From an uncultured Parabacteroides sp. (lineage in GTDB: Bacteria; Bacteroidota; Bacteroidia; Bacteroidales; Tannerellaceae): a DNA stretch of 64,000 nucleotides. The notes below the pieces were generated by a model, which saw only the letters and a program-made list of their open reading frames with translations, ran no database searches and had not been told where the DNA came from. The stretch is from the NCBI GenBank assembly GCA_944325335.1, contig CALUZR010000012.1, positions 5,860 to 69,859 on the forward strand, written 5' to 3'. Position 1 is the stretch's first letter, and every line of letters begins with the position of its first letter. Positions 8,892 to 48,914 of this stretch are shown in pieces. The position numbers and the translations under genes are program-made.

Positions 8892-10016
8892 TTATACCAA
8901 TTTGATGATTTTGGCATATTCCAGCGACAAGGGTTTCCCCTCGTGGTACGTTTCGATTCGTATTTTATAATTACCTTCCGCAAAATCGCGAATCATGATG
9001 AATTCACACCCCTTGTTAGACCTCGCCAGGATGTCTTCAGCCGGTACTACTTCCTCGATACTCGAGTTTTCAGCTATTACCACAATTTTACCCGGACCAT
9101 CACCCTTCTCGTTCACGAGTTCAAAGCCTCCAGTCCATTCCATCAGCGTCTCCTTGCCCCGTGTGATGCCCGTAGCATCATAGGGATCCTTCACTTTGGA
9201 ATAGACGGCTGTGATTTCTAGCTTGGCAGGCTCCTCGGGCGTACTTGGGGTCTCCGTTGTCTCCGTCTTAGTGCCCTGTCCACGCCGCGTGAGCTTATCG
9301 TTCACCTCGACAATCAGCGCGTTAATTTTGTCGATAATCCCACCCAACACGGTACGTGTTTCTTCATCTTTTTGGACCATCTCGTTGGCTTGGTACATCA
9401 CATTAATTGCGCTCACCAGCTCCAGGAAGGCTTCATCGACGTCCTGACGAATCTTTTGCATATTCGTTTGAACTTTACGACCATGTTTTTCCGACGAGCG
9501 GGCTTTGTAGGTCGTATTGAAGTCCGTATTCGCCTCCTCGAGAAGTTCCACGGCATAATCCAATTCCAATACCGTCACCGCGGCAGCATACTTTTCCAAC
9601 TTGAGGGTCTGCACCAGGTTGGTAATCTCTGCCGTAATCTCGGAATAGGACTTACTGTTCGCACGACGGTATGGTTTAATCGCATATTGCAACAAATCCG
9701 CCGCTTTGTACTTTTCCTCTTTCGGGCAGTACATGTAGGAATCGATAATACTCTTCAGGAACAAAAATAACCTGTTCCGCTTGTTGTTTTTGGTTGTAAT
9801 TTCCACCGTCGAGGCATACCCTTGGTTCTGTTTATACACCAGGTCTTCTTGCTCGAACATGCTCACGTATGCGGCATATTGCGTATCGAAATGATAGGTC
9901 TCCGCCACCTCTTGGGGCACATCTTCTATCACATCTTGGTTAAACTGGAAGTGTTCACCATTACGCAACAAACCGATTTGCGTAGCACACGTTAAAACTT
10001 TCTTTGTGTTTGTCAT
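8892..10016 (-). CDS. Hypothetical protein with a C-terminal DUF4469-type Ig-like module and a helical N-terminal domain of unknown function
   Basis: 374-aa ORF. Its C-terminus (FAEGNYKIRIETYHEGKP) aligns with the C-terminus of 46735..47487 (LAEGNYTLRIETYIGTNG). The N-terminal LRNGEHFQF region looks DUF6261-like (from memory, unverified). No signal peptide. Confidence 0.8.
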   Translation of the reverse strand: MTNTKKVLTCATQIGLLRNGEHFQFNQDVIEDVPQEVAETYHFDTQYAAYVSMFEQEDLVYKQNQGYASTVEITTKNNKRNRLFLFLKSIIDSYMYCPKEEKYKAADLLQYAIKPYRRANSKSYSEITAEITNLVQTLKLEKYAAAVTVLELDYAVELLEEANTDFNTTYKARSSEKHGRKVQTNMQKIRQDVDEAFLELVSAINVMYQANEMVQKDEETRTVLGGIIDKINALIVEVNDKLTRRGQGTKTETTETPSTPEEPAKLEITAVYSKVKDPYDATGITRGKETLMEWTGGFELVNEKGDGPGKIVVIAENSSIEEVVPAEDILARSNKGCEFIMIRDFAEGNYKIRIETYHEGKPLSLEYAKIIKLV

Positions 10017-40377: not shown

Positions 40378-43300
40378 ATGCCAAACAAGACAACAAATTC
40401 CATTTGTTTGCTATTAGTGGCAGCTGCATTGAGCGTTACAGGTAACGTGTATGCAGAAATTGCCCCGGCAAACCCGAGTGCCCTCCGTGCTCAGCAGGAC
40501 GGTACAGTGACGGGTAACGTAGTGGATGCTTACGGTCCAGTCATCGGCGCATCCGTAATCATCAAAGGCACCACCACAGGTTGTATTACCGACATGGACG
40601 GTAACTTCACCTTGGAAGGCGTAAAGAACGGCGATGTAATCCAAATCTCGTACATTGGGTACAAGACGCAGGAAATCCCCTACACCGGCCAGCCGTCTCT
40701 CAACGTCACCATGGCGGAAGATTCCGAGCAACTTGAAGAGGTAGTCGTAACCGCCTTGGGTATCAAGAAAGACGCCAAGAAGTTGGGTTACGCCGTTAGT
40801 ACGATCTCTGCCGAAGATTTGAACAAGACCGGTAGCTCTTCGATTGCGACAGGCTTGTATGGTAAAGCAGCTGGTGTACGTATTAACTCGGCTCCCGGTG
40901 GTGGTACGGGGTCTATCTCTATCTCCGTGCGTGGTCTCTCTTCTATTACCGGTAACACGCAGCCGTTAATCATCATGGATGGTGTGCCCATCCGTAACGG
41001 TAACGCCAACAACAATGGTTATTGGGACAATCAGCGTGTCCAATCTAATGGTATGGTGGATATCAACCCGGAGGATATCGAAAACATCTCCATCTTGAAA
41101 GGTGCTGCCGCTTCGGCCCTCTACGGTTCGGAAGCTGCCAACGGTGTCGTCATGATTACCACGAAGAAGGGTAAAGCTGGTTCAGGTACCAAGATTGACT
41201 TCAGTGCCAACGTTTCTTTTGACAAAGTAGCGTACATGCCGGAAATCCAAAAACAATATGGTATGGGACTTGATAACTCATCTTTTACAAACGATGACCC
41301 CAAGGCATTGACAGGTTTTAGTAATACAACTTACTTCGACCGAAATGGCAATGCACTTTACACTCCTAACTCTGCAACTTATGATGGTTGGGGCGCTAAA
41401 TTTGATCCCAGCATAACAGTGACAGATTTCAATGGACTACAGCGTGCATGGGAGCCAATCGACCACAACCAATGGGCGGATATCTTCCGTACTGGTGTGA
41501 CGCAAACGTACAACCTTTCTATCACAAATGCCACAGAAAAGAATAATGTACGTTTCTCGTACACGTTCAACGACAACAAGCCGATGCAGTATAATTCGCG
41601 CAACAATAAGCACGTGTTCAGCTTGAACGGTACTTTCAATGTAACCGACAAGATCAAGTTGAATTACAACGCGAACTATACAACGCAGTACATTAAGAAC
41701 CGTCCGTATCGTATCAGTCGTTTGGTAACGAACTTTACCGGTATGTTCAATGGCTTTACGGATGTAGCATGGATTCGTGACCATACTATGACAAGTTTGG
41801 GTTACCTAAACTCAATAGCAGCTGTGAATGGTGGAACGCTTGATACCCTGACTCCAGACGAACAATTCCTTTATGATTCAGGTTCTTCAAGTATGATGAG
41901 TGAATATTTCTGGAATATCTTTGGTAAAGTACAGGAAGAAAATCACGAACGTTTCATTGGATCTGTCAACCCAACTTGGGATATCATTCCGGGCTTGACA
42001 TTGAGCGGACGTATCGCTACCGACTTGACCATCGATAAGATTGAAAATAAAAATAATGCGGAAAATGCACATATTTTCTCTACGAATGGACAATATAGCG
42101 ATTCTTACGGATTACAGAATAGCCGTTATTCGATTGTCTATGGCGATGTAATGTTGATGTTCGACAAGACCTTTGGTGAGAAACACAACGTAACCGCCAA
42201 TTTGGGTTGGAATGCGCGCCAGGAATCTTACTATTTGTCAAATGTTAGTACTTCACAAGGTTTGACACAGGAAAACTGGTTCCACTTGAATGCGTCTGTG
42301 GGTACGAAGAATGCCAGCATGACGAAACAGGAATTGCTCCGTACGGGTGCCTTCTTGACAGCCAGCTACGGCTACGACAGCTGGGGCTATGTAGAAGGAT
42401 CTATTCGTCAGGAAAAGACTTCTACCTTGAGCCATGGCAACAACGCTTTCTGGTACCCATCTGGTAGCTTAAGCGTATTATATACAGAGTTGTTGAAAGA
42501 CAAGAATCCGAGTTGGTGGAATTATGGTAAGATTCGTTTCTCGTATGGTGTCGTTGGTAATGCGCCGGAAATCTATTTGGCCAATATGGCATATGAGCAA
42601 AAATCATATACGCGCGGCGAAACCTTTGTTACAAACGGAGTACCGACTACCATTGGTAATGAAACCATCAAACCTGAAAAGAAATATGAATTTGAGTTAG
42701 GTATTGAAAATAAATTCTTGAACAACCGCTTGGGCATGGAGTTCAACTTCTATTCGAATACTATCAAAGACCAGATTCTGACAGCTACAGCAGCTACTAC
42801 GATGGGGGCTCAAGGCATGTTAATGAATGTCGGTGAGTTGGAAAACAAGGGTGTCGAATTAAATGTATATGGTACGCCGATTGAGACGAAAGACTGGCAT
42901 TGGGATTTACGTGCCAATGTAGCTTGGAACAAGAACCAAGTGAATAAGCTGGCTGACGGTTTGGATATGCTGAACCATACAAACGTAGACGGTGGTGCTG
43001 CCACGTTGGAATCTCATGTAGGACAACCAATGGGTGACTGGTATACTTATGTTTATGAAACCGACGAAAACGGTAACTATATTGTAGGTGAAAACGGATT
43101 GTATACTCGTTCCGCAGAGCGTCAAAAAGTAGGTAATGCTATGCCTAAAGTAACAGGTGGTTTTGGTACCAGCTTGAGTTATAAAAACTTGTCGTTGGAT
43201 GTGCAGTTTGATTTCCGCTTTGGTGGTGATGTGTTGAATACACCTTGGCAATATATGATGTCGGCAGGTAATATTGAAGATGCTGTAGGCGTTCGCGATG

Positions 43301-43830
43301 CAGAAACCGGAGGTATCTTTTATTATAGTACCACAGAAGACGTAACTGATAAGGCTTCTCTTCACCGCTTAACGGATGCTGAAATTGCTTCTTTAGGAAC
43401 TTATAAACGTGGAGAAACCATGTTGAATGGCCATTACGTATATGATAATGGTTTGATTCTGCCGGGTGTAAAAGCTGATGGAACGCCTAATGATATTATC
43501 GTAACGCAAGCCGAAGCAAATGCCCGTCAATATGGTTGGGGAACAGGCAATCCAGCAAGAACTTATATGGAAGCTGTACAAAAGAACAACTATATCAAGT
43601 GCCGTGAAATCAACTTGGGTTATACGTTACCTAAGGCATGGACCGAAAAGTTCGCTTGCAGCCGTTTGCAGGTTTCCGCATTTGTACGTAACCCGTTCTA
43701 TATATATCGTTCTTTGAAACTGTTCGATTCAGAAACATCGGATGGTACAAACTGGATCTACCAAGCACAGGTAGGTGGTTCTACGGCCAGTGCTCGTACG
43801 TTCGGTTTCTCACTTCGTGCAAGTTTCTAA
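40378..43830 (+). CDS. susC: SusC-type TonB-dependent receptor (no STN domain)
   Basis: 1150-aa ORF with a signal peptide, a carboxypeptidase-regulatory-like domain (GASVIIKGTTTGCITDMDGNF), a plug, and a terminal F. Confidence 0.92.
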   Translation: MPNKTTNSICLLLVAAALSVTGNVYAEIAPANPSALRAQQDGTVTGNVVDAYGPVIGASVIIKGTTTGCITDMDGNFTLEGVKNGDVIQISYIGYKTQEIPYTGQPSLNVTMAEDSEQLEEVVVTALGIKKDAKKLGYAVSTISAEDLNKTGSSSIATGLYGKAAGVRINSAPGGGTGSISISVRGLSSITGNTQPLIIMDGVPIRNGNANNNGYWDNQRVQSNGMVDINPEDIENISILKGAAASALYGSEAANGVVMITTKKGKAGSGTKIDFSANVSFDKVAYMPEIQKQYGMGLDNSSFTNDDPKALTGFSNTTYFDRNGNALYTPNSATYDGWGAKFDPSITVTDFNGLQRAWEPIDHNQWADIFRTGVTQTYNLSITNATEKNNVRFSYTFNDNKPMQYNSRNNKHVFSLNGTFNVTDKIKLNYNANYTTQYIKNRPYRISRLVTNFTGMFNGFTDVAWIRDHTMTSLGYLNSIAAVNGGTLDTLTPDEQFLYDSGSSSMMSEYFWNIFGKVQEENHERFIGSVNPTWDIIPGLTLSGRIATDLTIDKIENKNNAENAHIFSTNGQYSDSYGLQNSRYSIVYGDVMLMFDKTFGEKHNVTANLGWNARQESYYLSNVSTSQGLTQENWFHLNASVGTKNASMTKQELLRTGAFLTASYGYDSWGYVEGSIRQEKTSTLSHGNNAFWYPSGSLSVLYTELLKDKNPSWWNYGKIRFSYGVVGNAPEIYLANMAYEQKSYTRGETFVTNGVPTTIGNETIKPEKKYEFELGIENKFLNNRLGMEFNFYSNTIKDQILTATAATTMGAQGMLMNVGELENKGVELNVYGTPIETKDWHWDLRANVAWNKNQVNKLADGLDMLNHTNVDGGAATLESHVGQPMGDWYTYVYETDENGNYIVGENGLYTRSAERQKVGNAMPKVTGGFGTSLSYKNLSLDVQFDFRFGGDVLNTPWQYMMSAGNIEDAVGVRDAETGGIFYYSTTEDVTDKASLHRLTDAEIASLGTYKRGETMLNGHYVYDNGLILPGVKADGTPNDIIVTQAEANARQYGWGTGNPARTYMEAVQKNNYIKCREINLGYTLPKAWTEKFACSRLQVSAFVRNPFYIYRSLKLFDSETSDGTNWIYQAQVGGSTASARTFGFSLRASF

Positions 43831-43877
43831 ACGATTTAATTAGTTAGATTTAAAAAACAGATATAAATAAAGAAAGT

Positions 43878-45608
43878 ATGAAAAAGATACTATCATCGTT
43901 ATTGATCGGAGCAGCCCTTGTCTCTGGCATATCTTGTTCCGATTCGAGTTATGACGACAAATATATTGATCCTTCTAAGACGACAACGGTGGGTGTACCG
44001 CAAGTCTTCACGAAAGTGCTCTATCAAGCCAGAGAATGGACGGATTTAATGTATTACCGTTATTATGTACAGTGTGCATCTGAAGGTGTTTTTGCCGGAG
44101 TTGTAGGTGAGAGTAACGGTAATGGACGTTTCCAAGGCCCGGGTGTCAGCTATTATGACAGCCGATGGAAGAGTTTCTATTTGGTGGTAACAAACTTCCG
44201 TTTATTGGAAGAAACCTATAATAACTTGGACGATTTGGAAAAACCGGCCAATGAAGTATTCTACCATTTGGCACGTGTGGTAACCTATGCTCAGTTACAT
44301 GAAGTTCTTTCATTATGGGGAGATGTGCCTTTCAATGGAGCCGGTACGCTTTGGAAAGACGGAGACTATGACCGTGCGAAGCGTGAAAGTGTTTATGAAG
44401 ATGACGTAGAATTGTATCGCCAAATATTAAACGATTTGAAAGAAACGGGCGATTATTTGGCAAATGGTGTAGATGACGCCAGTCGTGTCTCTTTAGGACG
44501 TCAAGATTATACTGTGGCTGCTGGAGATACAGAAATGTGGCGTAAATATACAAATTCTTTGCGTTTACGCATTGCTTTACACTTGGCAACCAATGGAGAT
44601 TTAACATCAGAGGCTCGCGCGGCTATTGCTGAGATTTTGAACAATCCGGGTCAATATCCGCTTATCGAAAGCAACTCGGAAAACATGGGGGTAATGCCGT
44701 CAACGCAGCTTGATGATTTCAACTATGGCAAGTCTTTGTCGCAAGGATTACGTACTGGTTCTTATGCAGTAGGTTCGGCAACAATTCTTGATGTAATGAA
44801 TGTACCGGAAAACGGTATACCCGATGCCAATACCGACCCGCGTATTCAAGCGATGTATGACCCCAATCCCGATGGTGAATATGTTTCTTACGATATTACC
44901 TTGACCGATGCTCAAAATGCCAGCGTGGCAGAACAGAAGAATCAGGAATATGTAAGCAGAGGTATTACGACTGCCAATTATTGGTGCCAGATAGATACGC
45001 TTGCTATAGCTGGTTGGGCTGAATACCAAGGTAATGAAAACATCTTCTCTCTTTGGTTAAGTGCAGCTGAAGTAAGTCTTAGCAAAGCTGAAGCCTATTT
45101 GATGGGTTATGGCGTAACAGCAAATGAAAGTACTGCTAAGCAAAACTTTATTAATGGTGTAGTACAATCTTCTGAATATTTCTGGGATAATAAAAACACA
45201 ACCTCTCTTTACGAAGCAGGTAATGATAGTTATCGTGGTTATCGCGAACTTATCACACCTGAAACTGCCGACTTCCAAGCATACGCAGAAAGCATTTGGA
45301 ATCCTACTCAGGAAACTATCTGCGAACAGTTGTGGTTGAACTTCAGTTTCATGAACATGTTGGAGGCTTGGAATGTGACTCGTCGTACAGGTTATCCAAG
45401 AGTAACCTTCGCACGTGACTTCCAGAACCCGAATTATCCGACACCTCCTAATCGCCTTCCGTATGTGAATGATGAACTGGATTATAACAGTGATAACGTA
45501 CAACAGGCAATTGCTACAAACTGTGGTGGCGATAATGTGATAGGAGGCTATTATACACCTCTCTTCTGGGCTAAGAGTGATTATTATAATATAATTGATA
45601 TTCATTAA
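43878..45608 (+). CDS. susD: SusD-like nutrient-binding outer-membrane lipoprotein (SusD-like_2 type)
   Basis: 576-aa ORF with lipobox GISCS. Lies directly downstream of SusC. Confidence 0.88.
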   Translation: MKKILSSLLIGAALVSGISCSDSSYDDKYIDPSKTTTVGVPQVFTKVLYQAREWTDLMYYRYYVQCASEGVFAGVVGESNGNGRFQGPGVSYYDSRWKSFYLVVTNFRLLEETYNNLDDLEKPANEVFYHLARVVTYAQLHEVLSLWGDVPFNGAGTLWKDGDYDRAKRESVYEDDVELYRQILNDLKETGDYLANGVDDASRVSLGRQDYTVAAGDTEMWRKYTNSLRLRIALHLATNGDLTSEARAAIAEILNNPGQYPLIESNSENMGVMPSTQLDDFNYGKSLSQGLRTGSYAVGSATILDVMNVPENGIPDANTDPRIQAMYDPNPDGEYVSYDITLTDAQNASVAEQKNQEYVSRGITTANYWCQIDTLAIAGWAEYQGNENIFSLWLSAAEVSLSKAEAYLMGYGVTANESTAKQNFINGVVQSSEYFWDNKNTTSLYEAGNDSYRGYRELITPETADFQAYAESIWNPTQETICEQLWLNFSFMNMLEAWNVTRRTGYPRVTFARDFQNPNYPTPPNRLPYVNDELDYNSDNVQQAIATNCGGDNVIGGYYTPLFWAKSDYYNIIDIH

Positions 45609-45627
45609 TTAGCTATAGACTTTAAAA

Positions 45628-45649
45628 GCCGGGGGCGAAAGCCCTCGGC
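45628..45649 (+). other. GC-rich stem-loop with a GAAA tetraloop just after susD
   Basis: GCCGGGGGC-GAAA-GCCCTCGGC (9 bp including one G:U). No U-run follows. Confidence 0.55.
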
Positions 45650-45691
45650 ATATATAACAAAACAATCAACAAATCTTTAAACACGATAAAC

Positions 45692-45787
45692 ATGAAAAAG
45701 ACATTAACAATGGTAGCTTTAATAGCTGGGGCTATGTGCATGACAGGTAATACAGCTATGGCAACAGAAAATATAGAAATAATATGA
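45692..45787 (+). CDS. Possible 31-aa signal-peptide-like small ORF, or the remnant of a lost lipoprotein gene
   Basis: Manual translation gives MKKTLTMVALIAGAMCMTGNTAMATENIEII. Too short for the ORF track. No other support. Confidence 0.2.
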   Translation: MKKTLTMVALIAGAMCMTGNTAMATENIEII

Positions 45788-45883
45788 CATACATATATTA
45801 TATAAGTGTCTTGATTGACATCTATATAACCAACGGGGAAACCCGAAGCGATCTTTATTTCATAGAAAGGACAAGTGTAAGCG

Positions 45884-46099
45884 GGACGGTGAAACCGTCC
45901 AACCATGCTTAACCGCGGGTGACGCGTCAGCGTTACCTGCGGTAGTGGAATCCACCTCCATCCCGACCCCAAGGGGGTCGAACAGGGGGAACGAAGCAGT
46001 TCGACCCCTTCGAGGTCGAGGGGGATAGGGAGGCAGCCTCCCCGCAGGTAACGCTACGCGTCACCCGCGGTTAAGCATCGTTAGACGGCTTTGCCGTCT
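45884..46099. repeat. Long inverted repeat (arms of about 59 nt, spacer 99 nt), GC-rich
   Basis: The manual reverse complement of 46042-46099 matches 45884-45942. The inner 38 nt are perfect except for one 1-nt indel; the outer 21 nt have 6 mismatches. The spacer contains its own 10-bp stem (GGGGTCGAAC..GTTCGACCCC). Confidence 0.9.
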
Positions 46100-46193
46100 G
46101 GAGGCGAGCATCGCCTCGTTTCTACATTATCCAGATTCCTTATGTCGTCCTACGTATCCCGACTGCAGCGGAGGGATATCTCGACAAGCTCGA

Positions 46194-46341
46194 GATGACG
46201 TATGAGGTGTTCAGAGACCCTTCGACTTTGCTCAGGGTGACGTAGGAATAAAACAGGATGACGTAAGAGTAAAAACAGGGCAACGTTGAAGTAAAACAGT
46301 GACGTAAGTGTAAAGCTGGATGACGTAGATATAGAAACAAA
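46194..46341. repeat. 21-bp-phased array with a TGACGTA core (iteron-like)
   Basis: TGACGTA at 46196, 46238, 46259, 46300 and 46321, plus degenerate CAACGTT at about 46281. The unit is roughly GATGACGTAAGAGTAAAAACAG. Confidence 0.85.
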
Positions 46342-46593
46342 CGACAATAGAGACAACATACAACAAACAAAATAACAATAAATTGTTTCTAATCCCTGAT
46401 ATAGTGGATTCGACAGAAGAATGCTTACTTTGGCTGCAGGGATTGCACCCCGTAAGCTGTTATGAAATGTGTTTTTAGAGGGGGGCGGAATACGCATCCC
46501 GTCCCCTTCTTTTCCCAGCACGGCGGGGAAGCATTCTTTTGTGGGATTCCCTTTGTCTGAGGGAGGCTGCAGACGCCCTATAGGAAGGGTTTC

Positions 46594-46681
46594 GACACTT
46601 CTTATAGGTGTCGGTGACACTTCTTATAAGTGTCGGTGACACTTCTTATAGGTGTCCGAGACACTTCTTATAAGTGTCGAC
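46594..46681. repeat. Tandem array, 4 units of 22 bp, equivalent to 8 alternating heptad half-sites GACACTT / AAGTGTC
   Basis: Units at 46594, 46616, 46638 and 46660. Half-sites are separated alternately by 5 and 3 bp, so they recur about every 11 bp. Confidence 0.92.
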
Positions 46682-46734
46682 AGCTTGTTTGAGATTAATT
46701 CTATTAATTGTATAACTTCTTAAATTACAACATT

Positions 46735-47487
46735 ATGCCGATTTTCAAGGCCGTATACAAAAAGATGTCAAAGCTGTGGTATCCACAGGCGGTGACGATC
46801 GGTTCGCCCGTTTCGATGGACGAATTGTGTAAGCAAATCGCCATGATGACGACGGTCAGCACGCCGGATGCAAAGGCGGCGATCGAAGCTATGGGCATGG
46901 TGATGGGCGGTTTTATGAACTCGGGCCGTAGCGTACAAGTCGACGGGCTGGATACCTTCTATTATACTTGTACTTCTAAAGGACAAGGTGTGAGTACTGC
47001 TGACGAGGTGAGCGCGAAGCAAATCGCAGGCACGCGCGTTCGTTTTGTTCCCGAATCAAGCCGGAAGGGTAACACGATAAAACGCACTTTGATTAGCGAA
47101 GATTTGGTATGGACAAATATTAAGGAGATTAGCACGCTGGACGGTACGGGCGTTACTTCGAGCTTTACCGGCATCACGTGTGGCGCGACGGGACAGACGA
47201 ACGGGCACCTGAAGCGCGGCGCCATCGCTTTTGCCAATGGTAATGGCATTGAATGCAAGGACGCGACGGGCGAAGGGTTTGGCAAGGGCTATTTGCGGAA
47301 CGAGTTTGAGGTGGACGAGGAACTTGAAATCAGGTTGTCGACCAACGATTCGCTGGTTTTCGTCGTGCCCATCGATTTGGCAGAGGGCAACTATACGCTC
47401 CGCATCGAAACGTATATCGGTACGAACGGCAAGTTGCAAACCGAACCGCGCACCATCGAGTACCCAAGTCCTTTGGTATTAGAATAA
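46735..47487 (+). CDS. HU-like DNA-binding domain protein with a C-terminal DUF4469-type Ig-like module
   Basis: Start at MPIFKAVYKK (typical HU-like N-terminus), chosen over the TTG at 46708. The C-terminus LAEGNYTLRIETY matches the 8892..10016 protein. Confidence 0.85.
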   Translation: MPIFKAVYKKMSKLWYPQAVTIGSPVSMDELCKQIAMMTTVSTPDAKAAIEAMGMVMGGFMNSGRSVQVDGLDTFYYTCTSKGQGVSTADEVSAKQIAGTRVRFVPESSRKGNTIKRTLISEDLVWTNIKEISTLDGTGVTSSFTGITCGATGQTNGHLKRGAIAFANGNGIECKDATGEGFGKGYLRNEFEVDEELEIRLSTNDSLVFVVPIDLAEGNYTLRIETYIGTNGKLQTEPRTIEYPSPLVLE

Positions 47488-47651: not shown

Positions 47652-48914
47652 CTACAGGTATTCTTTCCATTTCCTTATCCAATCTTCCCGTTTTGCCTCT
47701 TGCGCGTCTTGCATTTTTACCAAAATATAAGCCCAATAACCCGTCTCTGCGTGAACGGGGCAGAGGTTCAGGTAACCCTGCGTGATGCGTTGGCCTTGGA
47801 GCTGGAGGGGATGGCGTTGGCACATCTCGCGATGCCGCGCAAGGGCTTCGCCGGGCTCTTTGTGGAAAGAGAGGGAGAAAACACCCTGTGTCGCAGGGGC
47901 CAGGTAGTGTTCCGAGAGATGGAGGGCCAGGCCGCCCATCGTCTGCCGCATGTTGATTTCCACGCAGGGATGGATGCGGAGCGGAGCTGCTGCCGCCGGG
48001 CGATAGAGGAACATATCCACGCCAAGCGGACCTTGATAGGCGGTGCCATAGAGGGAGGCAAGCACTTGGCATACCGCCTCTTTCGTCCGCTCGAAAGCCG
48101 GGAGGCTGATATATGCCTCCAATTGCTGGAGGCGATAGGCCTCCGTCCCCAAGAGATTACCTGAATAGGCGCCCGTGCGTACGGTCTGAAACAGCGAGAG
48201 GCCGCGATAGGCCACTTGCCCTTTCCCGTCGGAATAAAATTCCATCGCGAAGTCTTTTACCTTATCATAGAGGGGCTCGATGCTCACCGCGCCCTGTTTC
48301 CGGATGACGGCTGCCGCCCATTGTTGCTTTTTCTCGTCCCATCCGGTGGCCGGGAAGGACAACAGGCCGCGGCCGGACGAAGAGAAGGGTGCTTTCAGCA
48401 GGAATGTCCCCTGCTTACCGTCGAGCCAATGGTTGAGGGCGTCGAGCGACGTGGCAAAGAAGGGAAGCGAGGGCAGTTCCTCCGGAGGCAATAACGCATG
48501 AAGGGACGCCAACGCCTGGCGTGCCGTCTCCCGGCTGGCCAACCGGCGATAGGTCTCCGTCCACACGGGTACCTCGAGGGGCAAGCGGTATTGCTTGGCC
48601 ATGCGTTCGAACTGGGCCAACACGTTCGGCGCCAGTCCCCAAGGCGCTGCTACGAAACGCGGCTCGGAAAAGAGCCGGCGCGGAGAGGCCAGGCGGGGCA
48701 AATGGGGAAACAGTTCCCTCATGCGCTCCGCGTAGGTCTCGTCTGCCGGTGATTCGGCCCAGACGACATCTTCGGAATTTCCGTACCAGAGCGGGAGGCA
48801 AGCCAATTCCATCCCCATGCGGCGCACAGAAAAAGCCGGCGTATAATTGCGCCGGCTGATACCTATCGCCTCCTCGTTTCCCGGATTGAAATAGATAAAA
48901 GAAGCGGGTGGCAT
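47652..48914 (-). CDS. Conserved hypothetical protein, possibly ATP-grasp-like
   Basis: 420-aa ORF that directly abuts the DUF349 stop (operon). The block LLKAPFSSSGRGL suggests an ATP-grasp fold. The product call is weak. Confidence 0.7.
   Translation of the reverse strand: MPPASFIYFNPGNEEAIGISRRNYTPAFSVRRMGMELACLPLWYGNSEDVVWAESPADETYAERMRELFPHLPRLASPRRLFSEPRFVAAPWGLAPNVLAQFERMAKQYRLPLEVPVWTETYRRLASRETARQALASLHALLPPEELPSLPFFATSLDALNHWLDGKQGTFLLKAPFSSSGRGLLSFPATGWDEKKQQWAAAVIRKQGAVSIEPLYDKVKDFAMEFYSDGKGQVAYRGLSLFQTVRTGAYSGNLLGTEAYRLQQLEAYISLPAFERTKEAVCQVLASLYGTAYQGPLGVDMFLYRPAAAAPLRIHPCVEINMRQTMGGLALHLSEHYLAPATQGVFSLSFHKEPGEALARHREMCQRHPLQLQGQRITQGYLNLCPVHAETGYWAYILVKMQDAQEAKREDWIRKWKEYL

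Follow-up and report, generated by a model that had tools for sequence, protein, structure and literature searches.

A GC-rich quasi-palindrome in a Parabacteroides chromosome is probably a stranded copy of a dispersed foldback repeat family

Why should a stretch of almost perfectly self-complementary DNA lie between two protein-coding genes of a gut Parabacteroides? The stretch in question is a GC-rich quasi-palindrome of 216 bp at positions 45884-46099 of a 64,000-nt segment from an uncultured Parabacteroides sp. (hereafter the window, whose numbering is used unless another contig is named). It lies within the 1.1-kb gap between a SusD gene (43878-45608) and a HU-HIG/DUF4469 gene (46735-47487), and its GC content is 57%, compared to 33-45% in the flanks. 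The window is ordinary Bacteroidales chromosome, with PULs containing SusC/SusD and with DnaE, RelA/SpoT, ParA/ParB, SecDF, and TamB. A preliminary description of the locus had proposed four explanations, namely a structured ncRNA, a DNA hairpin resembling a single-strand origin (sso) or oriT, a MITE, and an invertible switch.

The palindrome is real, and its fold is far beyond chance. A repeat finder paired 45885-45927 with 46056-46098 (43 nt, 88%) and 45929-45942 with 46042-46055 (14 nt, 100%), with a 99-nt spacer between the arms. Direct reading agreed: the reverse complement of 46042-46077 equals 45906-45942 but for one extra C at 45928. The preliminary description was therefore accurate on the reverse-complementary arms (45884-45942 and 46042-46099), on the 99-nt spacer, and on the near-perfect inner arm with a single 1-nt indel. 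The smaller structures that it listed are also present, including the self-folding spacer (GGGGTCGAAC at 45974-45983 and GTTCGACCCC at 45999-46008), the spacer dyads GTGGA-A-TCCAC (45946-45956) and GGAGGC-A-GCCTCC (46029-46041), and the end hairpins GGACGG(T)-GAA-(A)CCGTCC (45884-45900) and AGACGGC-TTT-GCCGTCT (46083-46099). Folding of both strands, which had been suggested as a check, gave energies far outside those of shuffled controls: -164 kcal/mol for RNA of the + strand (z = -13.9), -174 kcal/mol for RNA of the - strand (z = -16.6), and -87 kcal/mol for DNA (z = -13.3), with 0 of 200 shuffles as good in each case.

The question of other copies, for which a BLASTN search had been proposed, was answered by several kinds of search. 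Parabacteroides sp. An277 had matches to an 18-mer from the arm on five contigs; the few other matches, in GC-rich genomes, were due to chance. BLAST and nhmmer placed five full copies and one half copy in An277, so the element is multi-copy there; these copies are 78-81% identical to the window copy, with homology extending from 45884 to 46101-46102. A pattern anchored on the basal stem (ATGCTTAACCG N140-170 CGGTTAAGCAT) retrieved 33 more loci from metagenome collections, mostly labeled as human gut and often several per assembly, and a further relative was located on a 93-kb Segatella copri replicon. This replicon was the sole match in the plasmid collection and was obtained with a relative as the query. 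BLAST searches of phage and plasmid collections with the window copy gave no match, and three scans of viral contigs yielded nothing. No ORF is conserved across the copies, and a profile built from the reading frame that is open through the left half retrieved no protein at E <= 0.001. Judged by these sequence comparisons, the palindrome is one copy of a family of ~215-bp quasi-palindromic foldback repeats dispersed in gut Bacteroidales. We found no description of this repeat family in the literature; it appears to be undescribed and may be contained within bulk MITE catalogues such as PMC11602168.

The surroundings of the copies show little in common. No alignment between the window and An277 flanks extended beyond the core, and the only flanking match was one of 31 nt (E = 0.004). 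The flanks of the An277 copies are mosaic, and one tandem pair of cores occurs among them. Three An277 copies begin 3 nt after the stop codons of paralogous surface-protein genes, in the orientation of those genes, which implies that segmental duplication or recombination, and not transposition, spread some of the copies. In the family at large, copies occur in both orientations relative to adjoining genes.

All copies follow a common plan, which reads H1, AAC, left arm, variable stretch, H2, AAC, loop, GTT, H3, variable stretch, right arm, GTT, and H4. In the window copy, these parts and the hairpin that flanks them are as follows.

45884..45900 (+), H1, the end hairpin GGACGGT-GAA-ACCGTCC, identified from the sequence and the DNA fold
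45901..45903 (+), AAC tail after H1; alignments show AAT here in strain L008 and most of the An277 copies
45904..45942 (+), left arm, CATGCTTAACCGCGGGTGACGCGTCAGCGTTACCTGCGG, detected as inverted repeats I1 and I4; no other stretch is as well conserved in the family
45943..45963 (+), left variable segment containing GTGGA-A-TCCAC, a dyad specific to the lineage; unconserved in An277 and other clades
45964..45983 (+), H2, the hairpin CGACCCC-AAG-GGGGTCG, with its AAC tail
45984..45998 (+), apical loop, AGGGGGAACGAAGCA, the source of a spurious SRP-like match
45999..46018 (+), GTT and H3, the hairpin CGACC(CC)-TTC-(GA)GGTCG, which mirrors H2
46019..46041 (+), right variable segment containing GGAGGC-A-GCCTCC, also a lineage-specific dyad; An277 has unrelated sequence in its place
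46042..46079 (+), right arm, the reverse complement of the left arm minus one base
46080..46099 (+), GTT and H4, the end hairpin AGACGGC-TTT-GCCGTCT
46101..46117 (+), flanking hairpin GAGGCGA-GCA-TCGCCTC, with the tail GTTTCT to 46123; outside the family unit

The last of these parts had been described as terminator-like. The hairpin exists, but its tail is weak, and it was not reported by a scan for terminators. In strains L008 and L011, the tail is GTCTCT, which is weaker still than GTTTCT. Family homology detected by nhmmer stops at 46101-46102, and the flanking hairpin is absent beside the other copies. A role for it as a terminator is doubtful.

Read from the outside in, each half-unit consists of a 7-bp hairpin with a GAA-type triloop, AAC, an arm of ~40 nt beginning ATGCTTAACCGC, a second hairpin, and AAC. 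The two halves are inverted copies of each other, so that one strand can fold into four small hairpins and one long arm helix. The earlier suggestion to look for compensatory mutations was borne out by this model of four hairpins plus arms, in which 94.1% of cells pair across the family and 31 of the 63 pairs have changed on both sides. The covariation score is 0.267 compared to 0.102 in shuffles (0 of 500 as high), and only 35-39% of cells pair in slid controls. The stem of H1 illustrates the extent of change: it reads GGACGG/CCGTCC, CGTCCCC/GGGGGCG, GCCATC/GATGGC, or GGCGG/CCGCC depending on the clade, and pairing is kept in each. Both end hairpins have 5 of 7 pairs changed on both sides, and 95.5% of the cells of H1 pair. 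In H2, 97.7% of cells pair, 4 pairs have changed on both sides, and the loop occurs as AAG, AAC, GCC, AGC, or GAA. Pairing in the arm helices reaches 94-98% of cells, and 12 of their pairs have changed on both sides; compared to the An277 copies, the left arm is identical but for 1-2 positions. The apical loop is free in both length and sequence across the family, and it carries the changes C45992T and C45997A in strains L008 and L011.

By contrast, a model of the full rod pairs in 86.9% of cells, and its long-range H1:H4 pairs are mostly broken. The preliminary description of an almost fully helical rod of ~215 nt thus does not hold for the family: across relatives, both end hairpins fold locally rather than with each other, which implies that the conserved shape is four hairpins and one long helix. 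The DNA fold of the window copy and RNAalifold gave the same four-hairpin picture.

The non-standard pairs of the hairpins differ between the two halves. On the + strand, H1 and H2 contain 61 G.T and 5 A.C cells (13:4 position-by-clade events), whereas H3 and H4 contain 6 G.T and 66 A.C cells (6:14 events). The non-standard pairs of H3, for example, are A.C on the + strand and hence G.T on the - strand. Wobble events in the arms are balanced (19:16). In each half, the "best" strand is the one on which the unit runs inward as 5'-hairpin-AAC-3'. Such two-fold symmetry implies that the element is made of two inverted half-units and speaks against a single full-length RNA. Because the events are few in number and not independent of one another, the strand bias is only suggestive of a half-unit that was once selected on one strand, either as ssDNA or as an inward-reading transcript.

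The arms of the window copy are unusually perfect. Its right arm shows ~6 differences from the An277 right arms; each of them makes a Watson-Crick pair with the left arm and replaces a mismatch, bulge, or wobble seen in An277. The arms also vary among assemblies of the same locus, with partial compensation, as in L008, where a one-base bulge has become a continuous stem with one G.T. We infer that this perfection reflects arm-to-arm correction; selection for pairing is the alternative. Such concerted evolution could proceed through hairpin-templated repair or gene conversion and would not call for selection of an RNA rod. Across bacterial families it is the core that is conserved, not the terminal repeats, and compensatory change has kept its local hairpins. 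Decay of a simple MITE would give the reverse, and the pattern hints at a separate function for the core.

Among the four original options, the MITE comes closest to the evidence, in that the family is multi-copy and relatives have both terminal inverted repeats (TIRs) and target-site duplications. In the largest clade, the core lies inside units of ~300 bp that begin GGTTCATCCGCA and end TGCGGATGAACC. Of 24 TIR-bounded units examined, 10 have perfect 8/8 target-site duplications and 2 have 7/8, in different flanking sequences. The terminal inverted repeats and 8-bp duplications imply that the copies of this clade are bona fide MITEs. The window copy matches part of this pattern: it is 216 bp long, non-coding, and has arms that are inverted from the first to the last base. 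However, it has no outer terminal repeats and no target-site duplication, and it is single in the 64-kb window, where nhmmer searches with two profiles found no further copy; its relatives in An277 and the metagenomes are multi-copy. The An277 copies likewise show no clear flanking direct repeat. The core therefore occurs in three outer contexts, which are the GGTTCATCCGCA terminal repeat, an AAGTTTCGCAAGTA inverted repeat (S. copri), and none (An277 and the window), and the same terminal-repeat shell also holds unrelated palindromic cores. Neither the fetched loci nor the viral contigs yielded an autonomous element whose ends match. Pairs of terminal repeats 0.45-4 kb apart were considered as a possible autonomous partner and rejected, since they enclose acyl-CoA dehydrogenase, GH115, and MraW and no transposase. 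No transposase gene lies next to any examined copy, and none was found among the window proteins scanned (64 kb), nor was any integrase, Rep, relaxase, or recombinase.

The GGTTCATCCGCA units are often inserted in another hairpin repeat, of the AAAAGGCCGTCTTTT type. The metagenome genomes L030-L059 are crowded with this repeat in alternating orientation (e.g., L057 2330-2460 and L038 660-800). It is the preferred target of the GGTTCATCCGCA MITEs, and the duplications include CCTTTCGC, CCTTTTAC, and GTAAAAGG. In some units, a third module (CCCCGAAGGGGTAAAACCGCTTCGCGGAAATTAACAATTAACAATG...) is joined with the core, giving BIME-like mosaics.

We conclude that the window palindrome is most likely a solitary copy of the foldback family, a relic of mobile DNA without a dedicated host function, and we put the probability of this reading at about 0.6. 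Membership in a dispersed repeat family implies that the palindrome is most likely stranded mobile DNA rather than a unique RNA gene or switch. The major-clade copies were inserted by a transposase supplied in trans, and the window copy would have arrived as, or would descend from, such mobile DNA. Because it lacks outer repeats and a duplication, it has probably become immobile. If it affects the host today, it would do so incidentally, possibly by impeding read-through between the SusC/SusD operon and the HU-HIG gene.

Several known repeats resemble the family. Like Correia/NEMIS elements of Neisseria and ERIC/IRU elements of enterobacteria, its members are 100-300 bp long, non-coding, intergenic, multi-copy, able to form a long hairpin, and often located just downstream of genes; the likeness includes the terminal repeats and fixed-length duplications of the relatives, which the window and An277 copies lack. 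IS6-family elements generate 8-bp duplications, as seen in the major clade. The terminal repeat of that clade, GGTTCATCCGCAAATCT, agrees with the IS257 inverted repeat GGTTCTGTTGCAAAGTT (PMC4856351) at 11 of 17 positions, among them the initial GGTTC and a GCAAA block, a likeness to IS6/IS26 that is a lead only, as one IS end was compared and the match concerns relatives rather than the window copy. In a large MITE census, most MITE clusters are genus-specific (PMC11602168). Compared to palindromic MITEs, the present family differs in that an internal four-hairpin core is kept across Parabacteroides and Segatella while the terminal repeats differ.

At the locus itself, ten metagenome assemblies that span the element (L001, L002, and L004-L011) all carry it and are collinear at 93-100% identity, and three additional spanning assemblies (L061, L062, and L065) likewise carry it with the spacer in the same orientation. 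One contig (L013) breaks off 30 nt into the element. We found no clean empty site, and every strain with this version of the locus has the element, which we infer to be fixed in such strains. A strain type without the palindrome, L066, has a DUF349 neighbor that is 98% identical, but its SusD and HU-HIG proteins are only 22% and 48% identical, respectively. The whole SusC/SusD-to-HU-HIG block has thus been replaced in L066, which implies that this block is strain-variable and that L066 does not provide a clean empty site.

The strain-variable block extends over ~40378-47487 in the window and corresponds to L066 1-5777; L066 is apparently of the same species. Its block contains another SusC/SusD pair, two extra small genes, and an HU-HIG paralogue. 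Assemblies L003 and L067 have the same HU-HIG proteins with other downstream neighbors. The HU-HIG gene seems to mark a recombination boundary.

The alternative that survives best is that the core is a REPIN- or BIME-like module recognized as ssDNA, in which each hairpin with its AAC would be a binding or cleavage site for a putative HUH/RAYT-type transposase or tyrosine recombinase. Such an enzyme would move the core alone, into various MITE shells or to bare positions beside genes. This possibility is unlikely, but it and an RNA-level function are kept in play by the conservation of the four-hairpin core across bacterial families and shells. It would account for local hairpins that are kept by covariation while their stem sequences are wholly different between clades, for the AAC tail behind every hairpin, and for wobbles that favor the 5'-hairpin-AAC-3' strand in both halves. 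The triloops, GAA, GCA, or AAA closed by C-G or T-A, also fit and are of the very stable GNA mini-hairpin type of DNA. Further support comes from the occurrence of the same core in three outer contexts, from the unrelated palindromic cores in the same shell, and from the tandem core pair and mosaic flanks in An277. However, no Y1/HUH or recombinase gene was found in the window or beside any examined copy, and the symmetry could be inherited passively from a foldback duplication.

The family does share features with REP, BIME, and REPIN sequences, including a small hairpin followed by a short single-stranded tail, units paired head to head that fold either on their own or together as one long stem-loop, mosaic clusters with other repeats, and, in the major clade, hairpins that begin CGTC. 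It differs in having two hairpins per half joined by a conserved 40-nt arm and in that no RAYT gene was seen, including in the 64-kb window. In contrast to REPs mobilized by RAYT, relatives of the window copy carry 8-bp duplications, which RAYT-type mobility is not known to produce. The hairpin dimensions are also outside the published definitions of CGTC- and GTAG-tagged REPs, which have stems of 8-9 bp and loops of 4-5 nt, with CCA as the tail of the CGTC class (Di Nocera et al., 2013, PMC3733652). Membership in the CGTC type was rejected, as the stems here are 7 bp, the loops 3 nt, and the tail AAC, and a CGTC head occurs only in the major clade.

A broader version of this idea, that the four-hairpin core is a functional module read by a putative enzyme on the inward-facing strand of each half, as ssDNA or RNA, we regard as doubtful. 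If it were true, a functional core would account for compensatory conservation across Tannerellaceae and Prevotellaceae and across different terminal-repeat shells, and the bare cores located after surface-protein genes and upstream of HU-HIG/DUF6261 genes could be sites of recombination or cassette exchange.

It is also improbable that the element is a cis-acting or small structured RNA, such as a 3'-UTR stabilizer, a bidirectional terminator, or the 5' leader of a transposase mRNA kept in foldback form. The covariation of the hairpins is strong and tolerates G.U, the window copy lies between the end of an operon and the next gene, and in An277 the element follows three genes at 3 nt past their stop codons and in their orientation. 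The wobble bias of the half-units would fit transcripts entering from either side. However, the wobbles are two-fold symmetric instead of being confined to one strand, so that half of the hairpins contain A.C mismatches on either single strand, and copies occur in both orientations relative to neighboring genes. The element also contains a perfect duplex of 37 bp, which is unusual for a stable bacterial RNA. A scan for sigma-70-type sequences, which was not tuned to Bacteroidales, detected no promoter or terminator consensus in the flanks. Finally, no Rfam family matches at threshold: Rfam 15 at gathering score gave zero hits in the window and, in eight related loci, only an unrelated tRNA and a cobalamin riboswitch.

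An invertible switch, in which the 58-bp arms would act as recombination sites and the 99-bp spacer would flip and alter expression of the HU-HIG gene, is very unlikely. The locus does have inverted repeats around a short asymmetric spacer, and it is strain-variable. But the ten spanning assemblies and L061, L062, and L065 are all collinear across the spacer, which was never found inverted, and no invertase or recombinase was found in the 64 kb. In addition, the spacer is itself nearly palindromic and has no promoter-like motif, and the element is a dispersed repeat rather than a device specific to this locus. The switch suggested in the preliminary description can therefore be set aside.

We give almost no weight to a divergent SRP RNA, a single-strand origin, an oriT, or an integron attC site. 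The best sub-threshold Rfam hit was Metazoa_SRP, at 29 bits compared to a gathering score of 70 (E = 2.4e-5 in a 1.3-kb search), but the matching AGCAG loop is mutated in L008 and L011, and two relatives tested gave no SRP hit. Polymorphism of this loop within the species and the lack of a hit in relatives imply that the match is spurious. The earlier idea of an sso- or oriT-like hairpin finds no Rep, relaxase, or mobilization genes in the window and no phage or plasmid match to the window copy. Integron attC sites have an R''(RYYYAAC)/R'(GTTRRRY) arrangement, span 57-141 bp, and lie near an integrase or in a cassette array. The window copy does match the heptamers (GTCCAAC ... GTTAGAC), but at the family level GGCGAAC and GTCGAAT depart from the consensus, the 190-nt span exceeds known sizes, and there is no IntI.

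On the likeliest reading, a solitary repeat copy, a false lead is removed, since the striking rod is a member of a repeat family and not a new RNA gene or DNA switch. Elements of this family break assemblies, as in contig L013, and can seed false predictions of ncRNA, and they mark strain-variable PUL and surface-protein loci in gut Bacteroidales. An oddity is that the part conserved across bacterial families is an internal structured core and not the transposon ends.

Other features of the locus were noted during this analysis. Between the palindrome and the HU-HIG gene lies a periodic array with a 21-nt unit (46233-46328, extending over ~46190-46340; 4.6 copies by TRF), whose TGACGTA cores are spaced by about two helical turns. 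One An277 copy is followed by a short motif related to this array (CTTCGACTTYGCTCAG..TGACGTA; L016 3640-3670). Just upstream of the HU-HIG gene, at positions 46594-46679, a 22-nt unit with dyad symmetry of its own (GACACTTCTTATAAGTGTC) is repeated 3.9 times in tandem, and the number of copies depends on the strain, with one more in L007 and L011 and one fewer in L008. L066 (4643-4912; 23 nt x ~12) and An277 (L016 2980-3240; ~60-nt units) have tandem arrays of unrelated sequence in this position, upstream of paralogous genes.

On the other side of the element, a 31-codon ORF at 45694-45789 resembles an isolated signal peptide (MKKTLTMVALIAGAMCMTGNTAMATENIEII) and is possibly left over from a degraded gene for a secreted protein; a 122-bp deletion in L008 and L011 removes it. 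An upstream pseudogene related to the An277 surface-protein genes was considered and rejected, as the resemblance between the translation ahead of the element (...DIYITNGETRSDLYF...) and the An277 C-terminal sequence (...GIYIVRVGEKVFKLKN) is faint and too weak to claim. Elsewhere in the window, a DUF6261 gene (8892-10016, - strand) belongs to the same family as genes downstream of the element in An277 (L016 and L023), and its 378-nt upstream gap contains no copy of the element. A 420-aa ORF at 47652-48914 (- strand) has no Pfam match and a GC content of ~60%, well above its surroundings; it is 400 aa long in some strains and is conserved beside the DUF349 gene. Lastly, a small hairpin, CGGG-GAAA-CCCG, is present at 45833-45846, 40 nt upstream of the element, and shows a compensatory change of C-G to T-A in L008 and L011.
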